DNA of 44,870 bases from Blastocatellia bacterium (GTDB lineage Bacteria > Acidobacteriota > Blastocatellia > RBC074): assembly GCA_049318845.1 (NCBI GenBank), contig JBMOFH010000002.1, positions 1 to 44,870 of the forward strand. Reading direction: 5' to 3'. Made by a program: the position numbers and the translations under genes. The notes under the pieces were generated by a model. The model made no database searches and was not told the origin of the DNA. It worked only from the letters and a program-made list of their open reading frames with translations. Within the stretch, counting starts at the first letter, position 1. Each line of letters starts with the position of its first letter. Of the stretch, positions 5,258 through 36,834 are shown in pieces.

Positions 5258-5641
5258 CTATTCTGCCTCGGTGATCGAGACAACACTGACCTTCGAGCCC
5301 TCGACCTTGCCGACAACCTTGAAAGTCGCGCCCTTCTCCTTGGTGCTCTTCTCAAAAGCAGCCTTTGCGAGCTCAGTCCCCTTGGCATCGAACTCATAAT
5401 ACTTGCCGTCGGAAAAGACTCCGTAACCACTGGCGGCACACTTCTCCATCAGCGCACACTTCTTGCTGTGGCCGGCGGAAGCCTCCTGCGGAGTAGCAGC
5501 GGCAACGAATCGACCAGAGCAGGCCTTGTCAACAAGGTGGCCCGTCAGGGTCTTCGTCTCCCCATCGGCCAGTGCGAGTGTGGTGAGGGCCATTAGCAAT
5601 CCAACTACTAATACAATCTTACTCGTCGTCAGTCTCTTCAT
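5258..5641 (-). CDS. Small secreted Cys-containing hypothetical protein
   Basis: Signal peptide MKRLTTSKIVLVVGLLMALTTLALA. AAGGA lies upstream of the ATG. No family recognised. Confidence 0.6.
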   Translation of the reverse strand: MKRLTTSKIVLVVGLLMALTTLALADGETKTLTGHLVDKACSGRFVAAATPQEASAGHSKKCALMEKCAASGYGVFSDGKYYEFDAKGTELAKAAFEKSTKEKGATFKVVGKVEGSKVSVVSITEAE

Positions 5642-5660: not shown

Positions 5661-5687
5661 CTTATGCATCTTATGCATCTTATGCAT
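5661..5687. repeat. 9 bp tandem repeat x3 (CTTATGCAT)
   Basis: Three perfect copies, 20-46 nt upstream of the start codon at 5641. Each copy contains the palindrome ATGCAT. Confidence 0.9.
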
Positions 5688-5691
5688 CGAC

Positions 5692-5726
5692 TCGACAAAC
5701 AAGTCGATTATCGAATTGTTTGTCGA
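5692..5726. promoter_or_regulatory. Inverted repeat, 11 bp arms (TCGACAAACAA N13 TTGTTTGTCGA)
   Basis: Perfect 11 bp arms read directly. It abuts the 9 bp repeats upstream of the 5258..5641 gene and could be an operator or an RNA hairpin. Confidence 0.45.
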
Positions 5727-5994
5727 CTTGAGGGTCAAATATCCCGCCACTTTCCAATTGAGCTTCTGGACAGTGCTACGGCTTAAGGTCAGATTTTACG
5801 CCAACGAACTCATTTCGGATGAAATGAACTGCCACCAGAAAAGAGCAGCTGAACTAACCTATAAGGGGAGAATACCTTTTGCAAGCGAAACGCGACCTCA
5901 CACGACAATTCGCGAGTCACTGACTGGCAACGACTGCCGGTAGCCAGATAAGTGCGTTGTCGAAGGGGATCGCGGTATCGGGCTATGCCGGAAA

Positions 5995-6737: not shown

Positions 6738-7673
6738 ATGAGAATTGCGGCATCAACATATCTGAATTCGGCGCCCCTCGTCCACAGCTTCGCAGTGGGC
6801 GCATTACGATCAGATTATGAATTCATCGGAGACACCGCGCCATCGCGTTGTGCGGAGCTTCTGGCCGCTGGGGAGTGCGAGATTGCACTGATACCGGCGA
6901 TCGAATACCAGCGAATTCCCGGTCTGCGGATCATTCCGGGTGTGGCGGTGGCGTCAAAGAGTCGTGTCCGGAGTGTTTTGATTGCCTCGCGGTGTCCGTT
7001 ATCCGAGGTTCGGACGCTGGCAATGGACACATCTTCGCGGACATCACAGTCGCTGGTAAGAATCCTGTTTCAGCACCAATTTGGCTGGGAACCGGAGTTG
7101 ATCGGGCGCACACCGGATCGACGAAGTGGTTATGAGAATATGCTCGATGGAACCGATGCCGCACTGGTGATCGGAGACCCGGCGATGCGAATCGATGCGG
7201 CAGCGGCAAGTTTGGGGGTGACGATCCACGATCTGGCCCTGGAATGGCGGAAACTGACCGGCCAGCCATTCGTTTTTGCTGTCTGGGCGGTGCGGGAAGA
7301 TGTGTTATCGACACGTGGCGCGGGAGCGAAGCTGACTAATGATTTTCAGTTGGCGAAGCGTGAGGGCATCGGTCGACTGGCCGAGATTGCAGCTGGCTAT
7401 GTCACCGAGCTGGACCTGCCACTCGCGGACCTCACAGACTATCTCAAATCTAACGTCAACTATGAACTCGACGAAGAGAACCTCGCCGGATTGCGTGGAT
7501 ACTATGATCTGGCACACCATTACGGGCTGATTCCGGCGGCGCGCCGGCTCGAATTTCTTTCGGGTGAAGCGCCTGAGGATCTGCCTGAAAGCCGTGGGGA
7601 GACGGTGATCACATCGGCAGCGATGGGAGCGCCGGGCGTTGTAGACTCGACCATCGGAAGGCGTGGAAGATGA
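6738..7673 (+). CDS. mqnA: Chorismate dehydratase (futalosine pathway, MqnA/MqnD family)
   Basis: MRIAASTYLNSAPLVHSF...CEIALIPAIEYQRIPGLRIIPGVAVAS..VRSVLIAS...DTSSRTSQSLVRIL fits the MqnA/VitK2_biosynth pattern. The ATG at 6738 is preferred to the GTG at 6660. Confidence 0.75.
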   Translation: MRIAASTYLNSAPLVHSFAVGALRSDYEFIGDTAPSRCAELLAAGECEIALIPAIEYQRIPGLRIIPGVAVASKSRVRSVLIASRCPLSEVRTLAMDTSSRTSQSLVRILFQHQFGWEPELIGRTPDRRSGYENMLDGTDAALVIGDPAMRIDAAAASLGVTIHDLALEWRKLTGQPFVFAVWAVREDVLSTRGAGAKLTNDFQLAKREGIGRLAEIAAGYVTELDLPLADLTDYLKSNVNYELDEENLAGLRGYYDLAHHYGLIPAARRLEFLSGEAPEDLPESRGETVITSAAMGAPGVVDSTIGRRGR

Positions 7674-8617
7674 AGATTACAGCATTGGCGGGAGGGGTTG
7701 GCGCCTCAAAATTTCTTTCGGGACTCCAGCGGGTTCTCTCCGAAAATGAAGCCAGGGATCTGACGATCATCGTCAATACCGGCGACGACATCGAGATGTT
7801 CGGGCTCTACATCGCGCCGGATCTCGACATTGTGACCTATACGCTGGCCGGAGTGGTCAACGCTGCTACCGGTTGGGGAATTGCAGATGACAGCTTTCAC
7901 TGCCTTGAGCGATTGATCGGATACCTGGACGAGGATCGATGGTTCAACCTCGGAGACCGGGATCTGGCGACACACATCTATCGCACACAGCAGCTTCGTG
8001 CCGGAAAGAGTCTGACAGAGGTCGCCGACAGCCTGCGCCGATCATTCCGCCTGCCAATGCAGATTCTGCCAATGAGCGACCTTCACACACCAACGACGAT
8101 AGTGACGGCAGATGGCGAGATGCATTTTCAGGAGTATCTGATCCGACGGCGGGCCGAGCCAACGATAAAGTCGATCCGATTCGAGAATATCGAGCTGGCC
8201 CGACCGGCCCCGGGAGTGCTGGAGGCTATTCTGGAGGCGGAGGTGGTGATCGTCTGCCCAAGCAATCCGCTGATCAGCATCGGGCCGATTGTCGCCGTTC
8301 CCGGTATCCGTCAGGCGCTGGTTGAGACAACGGCGAAGGTAGTGGCAATCAGCCCTGTCGTTGGAGGAGCGTCACTGAAGGGACCGACCGACCGCATGCT
8401 TCGCGATCTTGGTATGGAGGTCACGGCGCCACAAGTCGCCAAACTCTACCGTGACTTCGTCGATCTCTTCCTGCTCGACGAAATTGACGAGGGTGAAAAG
8501 GGAGCGGTCGAGGCGCTCGGCATCGCAACCCGGACCGCGCAGACGGTAATGAAGACGGAGGATGACAAGGAGCGACTCGCCCGATCACTGCTCGAATGGC
8601 TTGGGAGAATAGACTGA
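7670..8617 (+). CDS. cofD: 2-phospho-L-lactate transferase (F420 biosynthesis)
   Basis: MKITALAGGVGASKFLSGL and ..VNTGDD..GL.I.PDLD are characteristic of CofD/FbiA. The start overlaps the mqnA stop (ATGA). Confidence 0.9.
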   Translation: MKITALAGGVGASKFLSGLQRVLSENEARDLTIIVNTGDDIEMFGLYIAPDLDIVTYTLAGVVNAATGWGIADDSFHCLERLIGYLDEDRWFNLGDRDLATHIYRTQQLRAGKSLTEVADSLRRSFRLPMQILPMSDLHTPTTIVTADGEMHFQEYLIRRRAEPTIKSIRFENIELARPAPGVLEAILEAEVVIVCPSNPLISIGPIVAVPGIRQALVETTAKVVAISPVVGGASLKGPTDRMLRDLGMEVTAPQVAKLYRDFVDLFLLDEIDEGEKGAVEALGIATRTAQTVMKTEDDKERLARSLLEWLGRID

Positions 8618-8626
8618 CCTGTCCAG

Positions 8627-8671
8627 TGCGCACGGGGCGCACGGGGGCACACTGGGCACACTGGGCACTTC
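8627..8671. repeat. 9 bp tandem repeat x5 (TGCGCACGG GGCGCACGG GGGCACACT GGGCACACT GGGCACTTC)
   Basis: It fills the 55 bp cofD-cofC intercistronic spacer and ends 1 nt before the cofC ATG. Confidence 0.85.
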
Positions 8672-8672
8672 G

Positions 8673-9356
8673 ATGAGATATATTTTGATTCCGGTCAAGG
8701 ATCTGGGGCGCGCCAAGCAGCGACTGAGCTCACTAATGAGCCAGGAGCAGCGAACCATACTGGCGACGGAGATGCTGCGCCACACGCTGGCTACTGCAGC
8801 GGCTGTCAGCGAGGCGAACGAGGTCGCGGTTGTCACGCTCTATCCGCCAGCAATCAGACTTGCGAAGGATTTCGGCTTTATGGTGATCGGAGAGGATCGG
8901 CAGATCTCGGAGAGCGATTCGGTCGATTTCGGCTCGCGTGAGGCGATGAGAGCCGGCGCCCGCGCCGTACTCCGCCTCCCGATCGATCTGCCGTGGATCA
9001 CCGCTCCGGACATCGATGCCATCCTGACACTGGATCAGCCCGAGAGCCCCGAAAGTGTGGATCAGCGGTCGGTGGTGATCGTCCCATCGCGCGATGGGAC
9101 TGGCACCAACGCCATTCTGCGCCGACCACCAGACCTCTTCCCCTCCCGCTTCGGGACGGGAAGTCTGGCGAAACATCGCGAGGAGGCCCGTCAAATCGGG
9201 ATTCCATGCCAGATCTGCGAAAACCCTAACATTGCTTTCGATATCGACGAACCAGCCGACGTCGCACACCTGCTCGAAGATCAAAGACCGTGCAGAATCA
9301 GGGAGATCGTCAGGGAGATCCTGTCCGGAAGAGACATCTGCAAAAACCTGCCGTGA
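8673..9356 (+). CDS. cofC: 2-phospho-L-lactate (or PEP) guanylyltransferase
   Basis: MRYILIPVKDLGRAKQRLS, DGTGTNA and FG.GS...H motifs as in CofC/FbiD. Confidence 0.85.
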   Translation: MRYILIPVKDLGRAKQRLSSLMSQEQRTILATEMLRHTLATAAAVSEANEVAVVTLYPPAIRLAKDFGFMVIGEDRQISESDSVDFGSREAMRAGARAVLRLPIDLPWITAPDIDAILTLDQPESPESVDQRSVVIVPSRDGTGTNAILRRPPDLFPSRFGTGSLAKHREEARQIGIPCQICENPNIAFDIDEPADVAHLLEDQRPCRIREIVREILSGRDICKNLP

Positions 9357-9463: not shown

Positions 9464-10489
9464 TTAAAGCGCCAATTCGGCCATGGTGCGAAGGGCATCG
9501 ATATCCCAGGTGCCACAAATCATGGTCGTGATACCACAATTTTTCCAGGCTGTGAGCCGTTCAGCAACCCGTTCACGTGGTCCACAGAGCGCCACCTCGT
9601 CGACGAAGCGATCAGGAACAGCCATTGCCGCCTCGGCCTTGCGCCCGGCAAGGAAGAGGTCCTGGATCGTGTTGGCGGCCTCTTCATAGCCATATCGACA
9701 GGCGAGATTGAAATAGAAGTTCTTGTCGCGCGCCCCCATGCCACCGACGTAGAGGGCAATGAAGGGTTTGACCATATTGCGACAAAGTTCAAGGTCGTCA
9801 CCGATTACGACCTGGACGGTCGGTGCGATGTCGAAAGCGGTGATATCGCGATCGGGGCCGGCCTTCGCAAACCCCTCATCGAGCCATTCGCGATAGATCG
9901 ACATCCGATCGGGAGAAAAGAGTATCGGAAGCCACCCATCAGCAACCTCGGCAGCGAGCGCGACATTTTTGGGGCCGATGGCGGCGAGGTAGATCGGGAT
10001 CGACGGCCGTTGCGGGTGCATGATCAACTTGAGCGGCTTGCCAAGACCACTCCCATCCTGCACCGGGATGTCGTAATGTTCACCGTGAAACTGGAGTGGC
10101 TCCTCGCGTCGCCATACTTTGCGAAGGATCTCGACGTACTCGCGCGCGCGCGTAACGGGCTTGCCATAATGTACACCGTGCCACCCCTCGACCACCTGTG
10201 GACCGGAAGCGCCAATACCAAGGAGCATTCGGCCACCGGTCAGGAGGTCGATCGTCGCTGCAGTCATGGCGGTCATTGCCGGCACGCGCGCGGTCATCTG
10301 CATAATCGCAGTTCCAACATTGATCTTCTCTGTCTTCGCGGCCAGCCAGACGAGCGGAGAGACTGCGTCAGAGCCGTAGGCTTCGGCGGTCCAGACCGAA
10401 TGGTATCCAATGCGGTCGGCCTCCCTCGCGAGGGCGACATAGTCGACCGGCACCGATCCCCAGTATCCACAATTCAACCCGAGTCGCAT
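9464..10489 (-). CDS. LLM-class (luciferase-like) oxidoreductase, probably F420-dependent
   Basis: [11 protein letters not shown]...[35 protein letters not shown] is typical of LLM TIM-barrels. F420 dependence is inferred only from adjacency to cofCD. Confidence 0.8.
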
Positions 10490-29015: not shown

Positions 29016-30314
29016 TCAAAACTCCAGATCAGATCTCTCGATCTTAAAGTCGTCCAGCTCTCCAAGAACCGTCATCGATATCATCTCCGGCTGGAATACC
29101 TCATTTGCCATCCGATGCAGATCCTCGACCGTCACCGCTTCGACCGAAGCAATCATCTCCTCCGGCGTGATGTTCCGACCAAAGGTCATCTCTAACTGCC
29201 CAAGAGAGCTCATTCGCGACGATGTCGATTCCAGGTTCAGGACAAGTGACGCCTTCAACTGCTCCTTGTTCCGGTGAAGCTCTACCTCGTCAACCGGTCG
29301 CTCCCGGATCCTCCGGATCTCCGCCAGTGTCGCCTTGATCGTCTCCGCCAGATTCTCTGGTGAAGCCCCGGCGTAAATGCTCAGATTCCCACAATCCTTG
29401 AATGGGTTGACTGCCGCGTAAATTGTGTAGACAAGCCCTCGCTCCTCCCGCACCGACTGGAAGAGCCGCGAACTCATTCCCCCACCCAGAATCACGCTGA
29501 GCAGGTGGCAAACATAGCGATCCGCGCTTACCGCCGATGGACACGGCACACCAAGAACCAGATGCGACTGCTCCAGCTCGTCCTTGTGATGGAGCACGAT
29601 CGAGGAGACTGGTTCCGGCGGCACCGTGACGGCGAGTGCCGGTCCGGCCACCAAACCACCATAATATTGCCTCGCCATTTCAACCAGTGCCTCATGGCTC
29701 AGATTACCCGCCGCCGCCAGAACCATGTTGCCGGGAGTAAAGATCTCCCGGTAATACGGCCAGACAAGATCCGGCCCGAAGGTATCGATCGACTCCCGCG
29801 TCCCCAGAATCGGTCGCCCCAGCGGATCGCCCGGATAGAGATTCTCAGAGAAGATATCAAAGATGATGTCGTCCGGTGTGTCCTCGACCATCTTCAACTC
29901 CTCGATGATCACACTCCGCTCCTTCTCCAACTCTACCCGATCAAACTGCGGTGACGTCACCAGATCCGCCACCAGTTCGAACGCCTGCGAAAGATGCTCG
30001 TCAAGGACCTTATTGTAAAAACCAACCATCTCCCGCCCGGTGAAGGCGTCAAGATTCCCTCCAAGCAGATCCCCCTCGGCCGCGATCTCCGCCGCCGTCC
30101 GCTTTCCTGTCCCCTTGAACAGTGCATGCTCGATGAAATGGGTCAGCCCATGCCTCGCCTCTGTCTCCTGCCGCGATCCCGTCCTCAGAAAGACGCCAAA
30201 ACTGACCGAGCGAACCTGCTCCATCTGCTCGGAGACGACCACCAATCCATTATCCAGAACCGTCTTCTCAACCCGGGTACCGAAACCGCCCGGCCTGCCA
30301 TACTGGCTCCCCAT
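29016..30314 (-). CDS. M16-family (pitrilysin/insulinase) zinc peptidase
   Basis: [11 protein letters not shown] (HxxEH). The ATG at 30314 has AGGAGAAG upstream, and the track start at 30383 is less likely. Confidence 0.85.
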
Positions 30315-30485
30315 ATTTCTTCTCCTGATTCCTTCATAACTTAGAGGGTAAAAACGATTCTTCATCATATGCCACCAACTCAACCAGCTTCAATTGAACC
30401 TGCTTAAATCGAAAAGGATATCTCCGAACCGATAGCCTATTCCCCCTCTCCATCCCTCCGTCAACTGTAAACTGTAAACACATGT

Positions 30486-30536
30486 TGTCACCTTTTGTAG
30501 ACACGTGGAACCTGCAAGTGTCACCAGTTATGGACA
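30486..30536. promoter_or_regulatory. Two copies of an 18 bp operator-like motif, TGTCACC-N6-(T/G)(A/G)GACA
   Basis: TGTCACCTTTTGTAGACA (30486-30503) and TGTCACCAGTTATGGACA (30519-30536), starting 33 bp apart. Each is an imperfect TGTC..GACA palindrome. They lie between the M16 operon and the RNA-module array. Confidence 0.4.
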
Positions 30537-30940
30537 CTGTCAACTGGAACGAATCCGGTAACCGTGGCTGTTGCGGGAACCAACTTCAGCGACGAACTAA
30601 CCAGAAAACTGCAAGTCCAATAAACAGAATGAGATACATTTTTATCTCATTTGTGGCCACACTGTGGCACGACCGTTGCATTTAGGTATTGCGTAACGAG
30701 ACGGAACACCGCAAGACGGGTTCCAACGGAAAGAGACAAAGATCGTTACCCAGATGCGAGATTGGGTGACTGACGGGATGACCGAAAAGATATTTGATAC
30801 GCAAATAGTCTGCCAGAGCGCCAATAGTAATTGCCAACGGGGATCAACTAACGGCTGCCGGCAGAGGCGAAAGAGATTGAATTGTGGAGCGCTGCTCCCC
30901 GAGGGCTTGAGAGTTTAAGAGCCCAAGGGTTTAAGGGAAT

Positions 30941-31057
30941 GTAATCGCGATCCGGAGGAATGACACGGGGGTCGGATTCCGGTTTCGATTACAGCTTCGA
31001 TTCGCAGGTTACTTAGTACAAGTTACGGGGCACATTGTGCAAGGTAACCTGCGAATC
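30941..31057 (+). ncRNA. Structured-RNA module A
   Basis: P1 is GTAATCG (30941-47) / CGATTAC (30986-92). Loop 1 core ACGGGGGTCGGATT is at 30965-78. P2 is GATTCGCAGGTTAC (30999-31012) / GTAACCTGCGAATC (31044-57), 14/14 Watson-Crick. Loop 2 core ACGGGGCAC is at 31025-33. Confidence 0.6.
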
Positions 31058-31097
31058 GGCCGAAAGGCTTCCGAATAGAGCGCGGCCAGACGAGTTT

Positions 31098-31207
31098 GTA
31101 GCAATGATCGAAGCCAACGGGGGTCGGATTCGGTCTGTCGCTACACCCTGTGATCCGCACAACTGCTACCGATACAACGGGGCACGTCGTGATCAGTTGT
31201 GCGGATC
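31098..31207 (+). ncRNA. Structured-RNA module B
   Basis: P1 is GTAGC (31098-102) / GCTAC (31140-44). The inner stem is GATCGAA / TTCGGTC. Loop 1 core is at 31117-30. P2 is GATCCGCACAACTG (31152-65) / CAGTTGTGCGGATC (31194-207), 14/14 Watson-Crick. Loop 2 core is at 31177-85. Confidence 0.6.
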
Positions 31208-31250
31208 GCTAAACGGGACACGCCGTGGTCAACGACCACGCAAAGAGATT

Positions 31251-31367
31251 GCAGCCGCCGACCGGAGAAGACACGGGGGTCGGATTTTGGTTGACGGCTG
31301 CAACATCGATTCGCGGGTTACGCCATCCGGACATACGGGGCACATCGGGTGACGTAACCTGCGGATC
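31251..31367 (+). ncRNA. Structured-RNA module C
   Basis: P1 is GCAGCCG (31251-57) / CGGCTGC (31295-301). Loop 1 core is at 31273-86. P2 is GATTCGCGGGTTACG (31308-22) / CGTAACCTGCGGATC (31353-67), with 13 Watson-Crick and 2 G.U pairs. Loop 2 core is at 31335-43. Confidence 0.6.
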
Positions 31368-31439
31368 GGACCTTAACAGGTTCCCGCCGAGGGTGCAAAA
31401 AGTTATTTCGAGTTGAGGAGCGCTGCTCCCAAAGGGGTT

Positions 31440-31558
31440 GTAATCGATTACCCGGGTCAATGACACGGGGGTCGGATTCGGGTATCGATTACATCTTTAG
31501 ATTCGCGGGTTATTTCACTCAAGTTACGGGGCACATTGGGTGAGATAACCTGCGAATC
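31440..31558 (+). ncRNA. Structured-RNA module D
   Basis: P1 is GTAATCG (31440-46) / CGATTAC (31486-92). Loop 1 core is at 31465-78. P2 is GATTCGCGGGTTAT (31500-13) / ATAACCTGCGAATC (31545-58), with 13 Watson-Crick and 1 G.U pair. Loop 2 core is at 31526-34. Confidence 0.6.
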
Positions 31559-31791
31559 GTCTGTTATCCCAGGTCGAGCGCCAGTCAAAAATTATTCTCT
31601 GTGTAAGATTTCGGTTTTGCCACACGAACTCCGTCGAATGAATTCTGTTCCAGTCTGGTTTCCCTCCCAGCCTCTTCATCAGGAGGCGATTCACCACGGT
31701 GAGTCCGGAGTTCAGTATTCTGAAGAGTGATTACAGATCCGCCAGCTGGCTGATCTGCCTGCCGGTTTGGGGTCTCACCCCGCCAATTCAA

Positions 31792-31824
31792 GGCCACCGA
31801 TCGATTTTCGATCGGTGGCCTTTT
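31792..31824 (+). terminator. Rho-independent terminator
   Basis: GGCCACCGATCG ATTTT CGATCGGTGGCC has a 12-13 bp perfect stem and is followed by TTTT. It lies 234 nt after module D and 118 nt before the nuclease ATG. Confidence 0.8.
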
Positions 31825-31941
31825 GCTGTTATACTTGCTTACTGTTTTCGAGGTGGTCAGACTTGCAGGGCCTCTAGAGCCTGCGAGGAGAATAAAAACT
31901 ACCTCCGCGCTTTAACCAGTTTCGTCAACCACATTAAATAT

Positions 31942-33240
31942 ATGCCGAAGTTCCTTCATCTTGCCGATCTGCATCTTGGGATTCGCCGTTACCGTTCCGA
32001 GGAGCGGACGCGTGATTTTTTCTTTGCGTGGCAGGACGTTATCGAGCGCTACGCGATTGGAGAGCAGGTCGATTTCGTCCTGATCGCCGGCGACTTCTTC
32101 GATGCGCGCCGGGTTGAGCCGCAGGCCATGAACCACGCGATTGCCTGCCTTGACAGACTTCGAGCCGCCGGTATCCCGGTGGTCGTGATCGAGGGAAACC
32201 ATGACTGCCACGAGGCGGAGAATAAGTTCAGCTGGCTGCGAAGTCTTTCGCAATGGGGTTTTCTGCACCTGCTCGAACCGATTCACGATGAGGGTGGTGT
32301 AAGGCTCCAGCGTTGGAACGATGCCGAGAGGAAAGGGTCTTTCATCGACATTGCCGGAGTAAGAATATTCGGATCACTCTGGTACGGATCGACCGTGGGT
32401 CAGGCGCTTGGTTCACTGATCGATGCGTTACGGGAACACCACGACGACCGGCTCTATCCAGTATTAATGCTGCACACAGACGTCGAAGGGCAGCTCAACC
32501 GCCCAATCCCGGCGCTGCCGGTTGCCAGACTGAACGAGCTGCGGTCGCATATCCGGTATGTGGCACTTGGACATACGCACAAGAATTTCGAGATCGACGG
32601 GTGGGTGTACAATCCCGGGTCGCTGGAAGCCTGCAACGTCGAGGAGTATTTCAACCGCCGTGGTGCCTATCTGGTCGAGATTGGCGAAGACGGTCACCGG
32701 GCGGAGTTGAAGCGTGAGTATCAGCAGCGGCGGATCGTGCGGCAGAGCTTCGATGTCACCGGCCAGGAGACACCGGAAGCACTTCATCAGGCACTAATGA
32801 GTCAGTTCGGGGAGGAGATGGCCGGGCATTGCCCCACAACTGTTAGGGCTGTTGGGGAGCCGGAAGGAGCGCCGGTACCGGAAGGAGCTCCCGTAATTGA
32901 ACTGACGCTGCGTGGACAGCTCGGCTTCAGGAGCTCGAGCCTTGAGATCAACCGTTATCGTGAAGAGATCAGGGATACTTTCGAGCCATTGCTGGTGATT
33001 GTCCGCAATCAGACGATGCCAATGGAGTTGGCGGTTGGCCTTGGACTGACGGATCAGACTTCGCGATCGGAACGGGAAAGAATGGTGATCGAGGATCTGC
33101 TGACGCGGGAAGTCCGGTACCGTGACCATGCGGCGGCACTTGCCGGGCTGATCCTCGAGGCCAAGCATCTGGCACTGACCAGTGAGGCGCCGGAACGGAT
33201 CCTTGACCTGATCGCATTGCAGGAGGAGAGGCAGGGATAG
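31942..33240 (+). CDS. SbcD/Mre11-family metallophosphoesterase (DNA repair exonuclease-like)
   Basis: [13 protein letters not shown] (motif I at the N-terminus), [22 protein letters not shown] and LGHTH. The start is set at ATG 31942 because the track start at 31699 would read through the terminator. Confidence 0.8.
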
Positions 33241-34749: not shown

Positions 34750-34941
34750 GCTCGCACTCGGCGTAATCGAATTGACTTGCCGCGTGGAATCGGTGCCCAT
34801 TTGCAGAATATCTGATAAATACAATGACGATGAATGAGATTCAGATTTAACGGGTGGGTCGAAAATGGGATATGCTTTGCTGATTAATTTTGCTGATGAC
34901 AATGTCTGCTCTGTTCGTTATGGACAGCCGGAGAGAAGCGG

Positions 34942-36834
34942 ATGGAACATATGCGGATGAAACGTATGAAGAAGGCATTTAGTCCACTGATCATCGGGTG
35001 CCTGGCTTGTGCAATCGTGGCAGCGCCGGAGACGGCGTTCGATGCCGGCCTGGCCAGCGTGGTGGGTGGGGGCTTGCGGGTCGAAGCGGCGGCGGCGCCA
35101 CTGGCACTGGTGAGTGGCTCGGTCCGGGATGACTCGGGCAGTCCTTTGATTGGGGCAGTGGTCGCATTGCTCGAGCCCCAATCGCGTGGTCGCGAGCTGC
35201 AGAGTGTGCGGACTGACCTGCAGGGCAAGTTCTCGGCGACGGTAGCGCCCGGAGCCTATCGGCTGCGTGCCACTGCTGAGGGCTTCTCGTCGATGCTGAC
35301 GCGGATCAACCTCGATCGGTCCGGGCGTGTCATCTACGACTTCTCCCTCAAGCGGACCGACACGCTGGTGCAGAAGCGCGGTGACAGCGACGATTATCGC
35401 TGGATTGCGCGGAGTGTGCCGCGCCACGTCCTCAACCTGAGACAGGGTGTCCCGACCTCGACGGTGGCCAACCAGTCTGGTGATCCGCTGATGGACGAGG
35501 TCAGGTCAGACAGCTTCACTCGACTGCGGCCGACATTTCACGGGCTCGCACAGTTTCTGGCATCGCAATCGAGCCTGCCCCAGGTGGGATCCAACTTCTT
35601 CGGATTCAACTTCGCTTTCGCCGGATCGCTCGACGGGAACGTCGAGATGGCGCTGATCGGCCAGCGTGGAATCGGCCGAATGGCCCCACAAAGATTGACG
35701 GCGATCACCTCGATGCGGACGAGCGATGGCCACAAGATTACAGCATCGTTGAGTCATGGTCAGATGACGACCGGCACAATACCGGTCGCCACAAACAGCC
35801 CCACGAACTATCCGGGATCGGGGCTCGGATCAGGTCGCACATCGGGACTCGGATTGGCAAAAAGCGAGGTACCGTCGACCTTCGACCAGATATCGGTTGC
35901 GACGCTTGGGGAGTGGCAGATCGCACAGCCGTTGCTCCTCATCTACGGCTTCGACTACTCCAGTTTTATCGGCTCGGCGGCGCGTCAGCAGGATAGCTTT
36001 CTGCCACGTTTTGCCATCCAGTACGCGCCGACCGCCAACTGGAAATTGAATGCAGCGGTCACGCCCGGGCGTATCCGCGCCCACCAGGCGATCGAGGAGT
36101 TCAAGACAGAGAATATACAGACCAGCCTGGAACTGGCTTCACCCGAGGTTGCCTTCAATGGCACGCCACAACTCGATCGAAGTCAGCGCTACGAAACAGG
36201 TCTCGTCAGGACCTTTCGTGATGGCAGATCGGCCATCGAGGGATCGGCCTTCTACGATCTGATCTCCGGCCACGGAGTGGGAGTAATGGCGCTTCCGCTC
36301 GAGGCATCGCCAGAGATCGAAGCAGCCTTTCAGCGGATCGCAAACCAGGTGACATCGCTGAATGGGGCGGCTCGCGGGACACGATTGATGTACCGCCAGC
36401 TCATCGGTTCACGACTAACGGCGTCACTGGGCTACAGTGCCGGAAGCGGCAGCCGATTCCAGCACCAACTCGGCAAAAACCTTAAGCCGGCGCAGCTTTT
36501 CCGTGATGGATTCTTTCAGGTAGCGACGGCCAAGCTTGATCTCGATCTCTCCGACCAGAGTGGAACGCGGGTCTCGACGGTGATCAGGCTCTCTCCAACG
36601 GCGGTCATCTTCGCTATCGATCCCTTTGCCGGTCGAATGAGCGTCTACGATCCAAATATCAACATCTATGTGACACAGGACCTTCCGAGTTTCGGGCTGC
36701 CAATCCAGTGGCAGGCGATCGTCGACCTCCGGAACCTGCTCAATCAGACGACGTCAGTCGAGGATGGGGCAGTCCAGTTGCTGGCGACTCGGAACAGTCG
36801 GACGATTCGAGGTGGTCTGGCTTTCCGCTGGTAA
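34942..36834 (+). CDS. Outer-membrane beta-barrel protein with an N-terminal carboxypeptidase-regulatory-like domain
   Basis: Signal peptide. GSVRDDSGSPLIGAVVALL...TDLQGKFSATVAPGAYRLRATAEGF is CarboxypepD_reg-like. The C-terminal ...GGLAFRW has an aromatic end. Confidence 0.75.
   Translation: MEHMRMKRMKKAFSPLIIGCLACAIVAAPETAFDAGLASVVGGGLRVEAAAAPLALVSGSVRDDSGSPLIGAVVALLEPQSRGRELQSVRTDLQGKFSATVAPGAYRLRATAEGFSSMLTRINLDRSGRVIYDFSLKRTDTLVQKRGDSDDYRWIARSVPRHVLNLRQGVPTSTVANQSGDPLMDEVRSDSFTRLRPTFHGLAQFLASQSSLPQVGSNFFGFNFAFAGSLDGNVEMALIGQRGIGRMAPQRLTAITSMRTSDGHKITASLSHGQMTTGTIPVATNSPTNYPGSGLGSGRTSGLGLAKSEVPSTFDQISVATLGEWQIAQPLLLIYGFDYSSFIGSAARQQDSFLPRFAIQYAPTANWKLNAAVTPGRIRAHQAIEEFKTENIQTSLELASPEVAFNGTPQLDRSQRYETGLVRTFRDGRSAIEGSAFYDLISGHGVGVMALPLEASPEIEAAFQRIANQVTSLNGAARGTRLMYRQLIGSRLTASLGYSAGSGSRFQHQLGKNLKPAQLFRDGFFQVATAKLDLDLSDQSGTRVSTVIRLSPTAVIFAIDPFAGRMSVYDPNINIYVTQDLPSFGLPIQWQAIVDLRNLLNQTTSVEDGAVQLLATRNSRTIRGGLAFRW

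Follow-up and report, generated by a model that had tools for sequence, protein, structure and literature searches.

Several bacterial regulatory RNAs are controlled by sigma-54 or are built from repeated hairpins. The Pseudomonas RNAs CrcZ and CrcY, as well as Qrr1-5 and GlmY, are transcribed from -24/-12 promoters that are activated from upstream enhancer sites, and CrcZ is a repeated-motif sponge with A-rich motifs for Hfq/Crc. The CcsR1-4 or 'cuckoo' small RNAs (sRNAs) of Alphaproteobacteria consist of tandem two-hairpin units with one conserved loop motif. ANTAR proteins recognise pairs of hairpins, 5-12 nucleotides (nt) apart, whose hexaloops have A as the first and G as the fourth base (PMC3369931), and EutX, a decoy RNA that titrates an ANTAR protein, shows that a trans-acting sponge can make use of such motifs (PMC8934654). 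Here we analyse a 44,870-nt stretch of DNA from an uncultured Blastocatellia bacterium (contig JBMOFH010000002.1; hereafter the window), in which an earlier note, made from the letters alone, had pointed out a tandem array of four two-hairpin RNA modules. The array appears to lie within an independent, regulated noncoding RNA (ncRNA) gene of about 1.14 kb, one of a family that seems to be restricted to soil Acidobacteriota of the class Blastocatellia.

The array lies in a gap without genes (30384-31941, 1558 nt) between an M16 peptidase gene and a metallophosphoesterase gene (Table 1). The observation made in the earlier note is confirmed, being correct in all details checked against the sequence: a repeat finder and the alignments return the same four module starts, and the stem sequences cited for P1 and P2 are those of the window. 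According to the repeat finder and two alignments, the modules measure 111-121 nt and have a mean column identity of 76% and invariant loops. Each folds into hairpin 1 (the outer stem P1 and the inner stem P1b) and hairpin 2 (a stem of 15 base pairs (bp), a bulge and 6-7 further pairs), separated by a linker of 5-7 nt across the four modules. P1 and P1b together span about 16 bp and P2 about 22 bp, and the conserved loops measure 14-21 nt. The loop motifs described as invariant, ACGGGGGTCGGATT and ACGGGGCAC, are each present in all four modules and occur exactly four times in the window, always on the + strand (ACGGGGGTCGGATT at 30965, 31117, 31273 and 31465; ACGGGGCAC at 31025, 31177, 31335 and 31526); the window holds no further module copy outside the array. 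P1 reads GTAATCG/CGATTAC in modules A and D, GTAGC/GCTAC in B and GCAGCCG/CGGCTGC in C, and P1b varies from 5 to 8 bp, with three G.U pairs in module C. P2 differs at seven positions between A and B, and pairing is retained at all seven, as claimed. Compared with shuffled sequences, the folding energies of the four modules give z values of -3.5 to -10.7. The roughly ten ACGGGG-type motifs that had been counted are the eight exact loop copies together with AACGGGGAT at 30838 and ACGGGAC at 31213. A terminator scan flagged 30966-30981, which was rejected as a terminator since it lies within hairpin 1 of module A.

A segmental duplication links 30879-31060 to 31410-31560 at a spacing of 499-531 nt (repeat families D3, D4, D6 and D8), and modules A and D are therefore paralogues. 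The two segments, including the pre-module hairpin, are 83-87% identical, which indicates that arrays grow by segmental duplication.

Two exact-pattern scans, one of metagenome contigs and one of GTDB species representatives, returned 70 and 78 loci, respectively, and a covariance model (CM) built from the four window modules was then run on all of them. The genuine carriers are 70 metagenome loci and 76 loci in metagenome-assembled genomes (MAGs), with sense-strand CM matches of about 38-128 bits. Two of the 78 genome stretches, on a Terriglobales contig and an Acidimicrobiaceae contig, gave no CM match and are chance matches to the pattern. Distant relatives and loop variation are under-sampled, because the scans of the collections needed exact loop motifs. 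The true carriers (about 145 loci) come from MAGs labelled Acidobacteriota, Blastocatellia or Blastocatellales, bar a few labels. Those that read 'Heliomicrobium' or 'Heliobacteriaceae' (Firmicutes; L072, L073, L077, L082, L089, L094, L102, L108, L114, L116, L119, L131 and L138) look wrong, because many of the MAGs so labelled have the same acidobacterial flanking genes, shared at about 60% amino-acid identity.

Genomes carry one or two loci, and the complete 9.5 Mb chromosome OY969418.1 has a single one; the hundreds of dispersed copies that the earlier note had named as evidence against an RNA were thus not found, and the role as a structured repeat element that it had also listed is rejected. 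Viral, phage and plasmid collections gave no match to the module. The statement that the array belongs to no known Rfam family also stands: the whole window has no match in Rfam 15 at the gathering threshold, ten related loci match only tRNAs, and searches relaxed to E<=10 or E<=1 yield just chance-level microRNA or viral matches far below threshold. Full-text literature searches found no description of such an RNA.

The compensatory stem changes noticed among the four modules are borne out across the related loci. In 128 distinct modules aligned to the CM, 94.9% of cells are paired, compared with 30-43% once the 3' partners are shifted along by 1-3 columns; double changes occur in 37 of 38 pairs, and none of 500 shuffles matches the observed values. 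Since this alignment was fitted to the model, two independent checks were added. The top ten column pairs by mutual information with average-product correction are all pairs of the model, and MAFFT followed by RNAalifold on 55 diverse modules arrived at P1, P1b and P2 de novo, 32 of the 40 pairs being compensatory. A lack of covariation in orthologous loci, which would have spoken against the RNA, is therefore not what these loci show. The loops are near-invariant even where the search pattern set no constraint (ACGGGGGUCGGAU in hairpin 1, (A/U)ACGGGGCAC in hairpin 2), the invariant stretches being 13 nt and 10 nt long, respectively, and the base of P2 (G...CGC/GCG...C) is nearly fixed across the family. 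Identity to the closest relative (L132) is 99.2% in each module but lower in the flanking coding DNA (95-97%) and in the leader (92.8%); indels are confined to spacers, the 3' region (31561-31789) is 96.5% identical and the terminator 100%. Taken together, these patterns argue that the module structure is under selection. On paper, UCGGAUU could instead pair with the 5' strand of P2, but in 23 of the 128 modules C lies opposite the invariant A, which would be a C-A mismatch.

The same alignments support the + strand, as the earlier note had proposed. Across 261 distinct modules, G.U/U.G cells number 1481 and A.C/C.A cells 85 (17:1); the opposite strand would swap these counts, so it is the + strand that folds. 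The + strand is also the more stable by 9-18 kcal/mol for modules A, C and D, and module B is about equal on both strands. A minus-strand RNA with C-rich, anti-Shine-Dalgarno-like loops of the cuckoo/CcsR kind was considered and rejected on the G.U to A.C ratio, the module energies and the orientation of the promoter and terminator.

The promoter was first noticed by reading the upstream DNA of several loci. Of the 123 related loci whose upstream sequence reaches 450 nt or more, 115 carry TGGCAC-N5-TTGC on the same strand, with GG at -24, GC at -12, fixed spacing and enhancer sites further upstream, as in sigma-54 promoters. These presumed activator sites, TGTC-N10-GACA (consensus TGTCAWCAATYRTRGACA, also written TTGTCATCAATCGTGGACA), usually come as two, 110-180 nt upstream of the promoter, and are present in 99 of 102 distinct promoter regions; their density there is 6.4 per kb, compared with 0.028 per kb elsewhere in the loci (about 230-fold). 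We place the start of the RNA near G30691 from the spacing to the -12 element and the conserved first bases GCG(U/C)AACGAGA of other loci. At the other end, the perfect intrinsic terminator that had been reported is present on the + strand, its 15-bp stem followed by T-rich TTTTGCTGTT. Relatives have equivalent hairpins at the same place, although terminator detection across loci was crude and the conserved position rests mainly on alignments. In 58 of 66 distinct loci, the stretch from the terminator to the start codon contains a TAYAHT box, most often TGCTATACT; because this extended -10 box follows the terminator, the next gene appears to have its own promoter. In some loci TGCTATACT is only 10-15 nt before the metallophosphoesterase ATG, which suggests that the mRNA is leaderless there.

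A near-consensus sigma-54 promoter with one mismatch, TGGGATATGCTTTGCT, is located at 34866-34881, about 60 nt upstream of a TonB-dependent-receptor-like gene (34942-36834), and may mark a second sigma-54 target in the neighbourhood.

Table 1. Features of the RNA locus in the window. MFE, minimum free energy; z, relative to shuffled sequences.
Feature	Position	Strand	Details
M16 peptidase gene	29016-30383	-	borders the intergenic gap
Upstream activator site 1	30486-30503	+	TGTCACCTTTTGTAGACA (TGTC-N10-GACA), exact match; presumed enhancer-binding-protein site
Upstream activator site 2	30519-30536	+	TGTCACCAGTTATGGACA; 33 bp from site 1
Sigma-54 (-24/-12) promoter	30665-30680	+	TGGCACGACCGTTGCA (TGGCAC-N5-TTGC); sole perfect match in the window
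Predicted start and 5' leader	30691-30940	+	start G30691 (GCGUAACGAGA); contains ACGGGG-like site 30838 and hairpin 30886-30898
Pre-module hairpin	30886-30898	+	GGAGC-GCU-GCUCC; repeat family D6; also before the first module in relatives
Module A	30941-31059	+	hairpin 1 loop ACGGGGGUCGGAUU 30965-30978; linker 5-6 nt; hairpin 2 with 22-bp P2, loop ACGGGGCAC 31025-31033; CM 126.5 bits; MFE -58.6 kcal/mol, z -8.2
P2 of module A	30999-31012 / 31045-31058	+	
Module B	31098-31208	+	most divergent stems; loops 31117-31130, 31177-31185; CM 82.7 bits; MFE -47.2 kcal/mol, z -3.5
P2 of module B	31152-31165 / 31194-31207	+	
Module C	31251-31369	+	loops 31273-31286, 31335-31343; CM 125.6 bits; MFE -64.8 kcal/mol, z -6.9
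Pre-module hairpin, second copy	31417-31429	+	GGAGC-GCU-GCUCC; marks 31410-31560 as duplicate of 30879-31060
Module D	31440-31560	+	loops 31465-31478, 31526-31534; CM 127 bits; MFE -65.3 kcal/mol, z -10.7
3' region	31561-31789	+	like the relatives' 3' domain only at its start GGUCGAGCGCC (31571-31581) and end hairpin GGGGUCUCACCCC (31769-31781); middle diverged
Intrinsic terminator	31790-31831	+	perfect 15-bp stem (31790-31822), 3-nt loop, UUUUGCUGUU tail
Extended -10 promoter-like box	31827-31835	+	TGTTATACT; directly after the terminator; for the metallophosphoesterase gene, outside the RNA
Metallophosphoesterase gene	31942-33240	+	family-2 glycosyltransferase gene comes next

The genomic context of the family is usually the one seen in the window, between an M16 peptidase block and a block of metallophosphoesterase, glycosyltransferase, TonB-like receptor and histidine kinase genes. 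The downstream gene is a metallophosphoesterase gene in most loci and elsewhere a NUDIX gene, a flavin adenine dinucleotide (FAD) monooxygenase gene or others; one lineage has genes for a NUDIX hydrolase and a zinc-ribbon protein there. Beside a ketoacyl synthase gene, several genomes contain a second, single-module copy, after which come unrelated or convergent genes; these second copies retain the promoter and enhancer sites. Judged from this pattern, the gene is likely to act independently in trans. With its own sigma-54 promoter and terminator, a separate promoter for the next gene and differing downstream genes, the unit is best read as an RNA gene rather than a leader, extending on the + strand from about 30691 to about 31831. 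The proposal of a novel, large, structured + strand ncRNA is thus supported by the related loci, the conserved sigma-54 promoter with its enhancer sites and the terminator.

The modules form just one part of a larger RNA family, which has further 5' and 3' domains and predicted RNA lengths from about 0.59 to 1.74 kb. Module number varies from 1 to 7 per locus, equal to 2 to 14 G-rich hairpin tips. Among 89 complete, distinct loci, 23 have one module, 20 have one module plus two extra hairpin-2-type units, 21 have four modules (the window type), seven have five, seven have six and one has seven; the remaining ten differ or are mixed in their loop counts. Most relatives conserve a hairpin in the leader with CCUCAC in its loop. 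Between the last module and the terminator, most relatives also have a 3' domain that spans about 250 nt and forms six helices (typically L005:8975-9262), in which 95.3% of cells pair, compared with 26-50% after sliding, and double changes occur in 22 of 33 pairs. Its loops are C-rich (UCCCAAG, ACCCAGU and UCUCCCACUU), and it ends in GGG-UCCUCA-CCC directly before the terminator. An nhmmer profile of this domain is complete in about 75 loci and half present in the class with one module plus two units; it has no match in the window, and only its last ~70 positions match in L132. The window lineage therefore seems to have lost the 3' domain except for its first ~11 nt and last hairpin, and in some lineages the RNA is reduced to leader, modules, last 3' hairpin and terminator. 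Since the 3' domain is absent or reduced in some lineages, the modules appear to be the constant core, and the window a derived, module-rich, 3'-domain-poor form. CCUCAC in hairpin loops averages 2.2 per RNA in sense and 0.07 in antisense, with up to five in single-module RNAs (examples are L003:9967-10190 and L099:137-500); the window and L132 contain no exact CCUCAC. Spacer hairpins vary in copy number as well. One locus has, between modules B and C (L035:9395-9505), three copies of a ~30-nt unit with a GUGACC-AAAGG-GUCAC hairpin, of which the window has one copy at about 31222-31240.

As for function, we tentatively favour a multivalent decoy for a loop-specific RNA-binding regulator, by analogy with known sponges; among the roles listed in the earlier note, the multivalent sponge fits best. 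An enhancer-binding protein would turn the RNA gene on in response to some signal, and the RNA would then act in trans, its hairpins presenting eight ACGGGG tips in fixed geometry, one pair per module. The tips would titrate a sequence-specific RNA-binding regulator off its mRNA targets, and module number, which differs between species, would set the titration capacity. CsrB/RsmZ titrate CsrA by this logic, and EutX/Rli55 the ANTAR protein EutV. Because two different tips are constantly paired in each module, the binder would probably be a dimer or bipartite. Loops that stay identical while stems drift, the varying copy number and an inducible promoter of its own are traits of decoy RNAs such as CsrB/RsmZ and CrcZ, and array growth by segmental duplication is decoy-like as well. 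Hairpin 1 of modules A, C and D is predicted to end in a C-G-closed hexaloop, ACGGGG, whose first base is A and whose fourth is G; hairpin 2 gives an 8-nt loop, UACGGGGC, or a mismatch-closed loop, and module B differs. The closing pairs are without covariation, because their 3' sides are invariant.

Several observations weigh against a decoy. Crude motif searches of about 1.07 Mb of flanking DNA found no linked ANTAR-like or CsrA-like gene: an AKG(I/L)LM-type ANTAR motif is absent from the six-frame translations of these flanks, and a crude search of MAG flanks for the N-terminal CsrA motif returned nothing. The invariant loop stretches and 22-bp stems are far longer than in known protein sponges, hairpin 2 has no clean hexaloop, the tips are spaced about 60 nt apart through long stems, unlike in ANTAR targets, and no module overlaps the terminator. 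In most relatives, the leader and 3' domain have further conserved hairpins whose loops are C-rich (CCUCAC, UCCCA), a hint of RNA-RNA pairing instead of, or besides, protein binding. Moreover, all carriers are uncultured MAGs. Separately, the only GAFTGA (sigma-54 activator) gene in the flanks is an RtcR-like one, about 6 kb from the RNA at a single locus (L065, ~1160-1370), and its position is probably a coincidence.

A regulatory RNA that works by base pairing, its G-rich loops pairing with C-rich RNA and no protein being titrated, is on the whole unlikely, although part of the evidence fits it. The partners might be targets with CCCCGU-like sites, or the C-rich loops of the RNA's own leader and 3' domain (CCUCAC, UCUCCCACU, UCCCAAG), in which case the modules would mask or buffer anti-Shine-Dalgarno-like seeds. 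The sense-strand excess of CCUCAC and the C-rich loops of the covarying 3' domain agree with such pairing, long invariant loop stretches are typical of seed regions, and by inspection CGGGGG could form 5-6 bp with CUCCCG or CUCCCA. However, the best intramolecular pairings reach just 4-6 bp, and the mutual-information scan gave no non-nested, pseudoknot or long-range signal; covariation is of no use for the loops themselves, because both they and their candidate partners are invariant. G-rich seeds would not target ribosome-binding sites. In addition, the four modules of the window lineage are perfect although its CCUCAC hairpins and most of its 3' domain are gone, which suggests that the modules work without the C-rich hairpins.

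A cis-acting leader of the metallophosphoesterase/glycosyltransferase operon, whose modules would bind a ligand or protein and control read-through at 31790-31824, is improbable. In most loci the RNA does lie upstream of the metallophosphoesterase gene in the same orientation, with the terminator standing between them, but the last module ends 230 nt before that terminator and no part of a module can compete with its stem. The multi-aptamer leader of nuclease and glycosyltransferase genes that the earlier note had suggested is likewise disfavoured by the -10 promoter that follows the terminator, in places within 15 nt of the ATG, by the variable downstream gene (NUDIX and zinc-ribbon genes in one lineage) and by second copies that precede unrelated or convergent genes. 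A protein-free form of post-transcriptional control in Blastocatellia, new to science and with this RNA at its core, is a long shot of similar standing: one sigma-54-induced transcript, bearing G-loop modules and in most species also C-loop hairpins, would mimic Shine-Dalgarno and anti-Shine-Dalgarno sequences on ribosomes and mRNA ribosome-binding sites, or self-assemble into a higher-order particle by kissing of G-loops and C-loops. GGGGGU of the G-loops can pair with the 16S anti-Shine-Dalgarno sequence ACCUCC via one wobble, and the C-loops (CCUCAC, UCCCA) resemble the anti-Shine-Dalgarno sequence.

We regard an array of small-molecule aptamers, in which the two G-rich loops of each module would form a ligand pocket, possibly with a G-quartet-like core, as very improbable. 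Invariant loop nucleotides on freely covarying stems are an aptamer pattern, the hairpins are of similar height so that their tips could meet, and ACGR-type loops recall the guanidine-II riboswitch. On the other hand, the modules have no expression platform each, a copy number of 1-7 is unlike tandem riboswitches, and hairpin-2-type units stand alone in one locus class. No Rfam riboswitch family scores at all, guanidine-II (mini-ykkC) included; the loops, at 14-21 nt, are not ACGR tetraloops, and no guanidine-related domain was found among the neighbouring genes scanned.

Finally, a DNA-level repeat without RNA function, such as a repetitive extragenic palindrome (REP) or miniature inverted-repeat transposable element (MITE), iterons or a replication-origin feature, is barely conceivable: the repeats are tandem and coincide with a gene-orientation switch and the cumulative GC skew minimum of the window, but one or two loci per MAG, a single one in the complete chromosome, differ from the tens to hundreds of copies of REP/MITE elements, phage, plasmid and viral collections have no match, there is no cluster of DnaA boxes, the 17:1 ratio of G.U over A.C is a single-strand signature, and promoter and terminator are conserved. 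A mobile or dispersed repeat and a phage or plasmid element were rejected on the same copy number and the same searches. A replication origin was rejected as well, with no DnaA box (<=1 mismatch) in 30384-31941 and no dnaA/dnaN domain among 30 window open reading frames scanned; the skew minimum, at about 30000-32000 where gene orientation changes from - to +, is probably coding-strand bias rather than an origin, because DnaA boxes are absent.

Two further features of the window lie away from the RNA. A 22-nt inverted repeat (5687-5731; 86% complementary, 1-nt spacer) is located in intergenic DNA upstream of a gene for a small secreted-looking protein (5258-5641, - strand) and is a possible operator. 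Genes resembling cofD and cofC (7670-9356 and 9464-10489) adjoin a gene for a luciferase-like monooxygenase, which points to synthesis and use of coenzyme F420 by the organism.

Acidobacteriota rank among the commonest bacteria of soils, and post-transcriptional regulation in them is almost uncharted. The new family is well supported, by hundreds of covarying modules in about 145 loci, and the RNA is unusually large (0.6-1.7 kb). It also offers handles, namely the ACGGGG loops as bait for a partner, the TGTC-N10-GACA sites as bait for the activator and the varying copy number, which amounts to a natural series of doses. Should the decoy model hold, it would uncover global regulation of the Csr/Rsm kind in a phylum that has no known circuit of this sort; should it fail, the RNA would be one more of the few large bacterial RNAs without an assigned function.

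Among known systems, the CsrB/CsrC and RsmX/Y/Z sponges, which titrate CsrA/RsmA, share with this RNA the trans-acting mode, a regulated promoter and terminator of their own, and a short motif repeated on hairpin tips whose stems drift and whose number varies by species. There is no sequence or model similarity to them, however; the hairpins here are 16-22 bp instead of 3-6 bp, and the motif is ACGGGG rather than A(N)GGA. Such sponges have many GGA motifs, whereas each module here has a single one, UCGGAU in hairpin 1, and hairpin 2 has none. The promoter depends on sigma-54, unlike the GacA/UvrY-dependent ones of that group, and the RNA measures 0.6-1.7 kb. With ANTAR targets, EutX and Rli55 the modules share two hairpins and a 5-7 nt linker, within the 5-12 nt range, and the predicted hexaloop ACGGGG of hairpin 1 has A at 1 and G at 4 (PMC3369931). 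The stems here are several times longer than those of ANTAR targets, 13 and 10 loop nucleotides are invariant rather than two, the loop of hairpin 2 is 8-nt or mismatch-closed, and up to seven modules take the place of one. Nor is hairpin 2 mutually exclusive with a terminator: no T-tract or terminator follows any module, the sole one lying 230 nt past module D. The modelled fit to ANTAR targets is therefore only partial, and we assign the RNA to no known family.

OLE, GOLLD, ROOL, raiA and HEARO resemble the new RNA in being large, strongly covarying, lineage-restricted and found by comparative analysis, but none of them matches it, and here a variable number of identical modules is combined with a recognisable sigma-54 region. 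The loops of the cuckoo sRNAs, by contrast, are anti-Shine-Dalgarno seeds rich in C (CCUCCUCCC), and every unit there is a small sRNA of its own; the new family has G-rich loops in one long transcript, and its C-rich loops stand outside the modules. A sigma-54 promoter with upstream enhancer sites is common to this RNA and to CrcZ/CrcY, Qrr1-5 and GlmY, although sequence and structure are unrelated, the motif here is G-rich in structured loops, and the crude motif searches of the flanks linked no activator gene to it. Altogether, the RNA family itself is new, whereas its general kind, an inducible RNA with a repeated motif, is already known.

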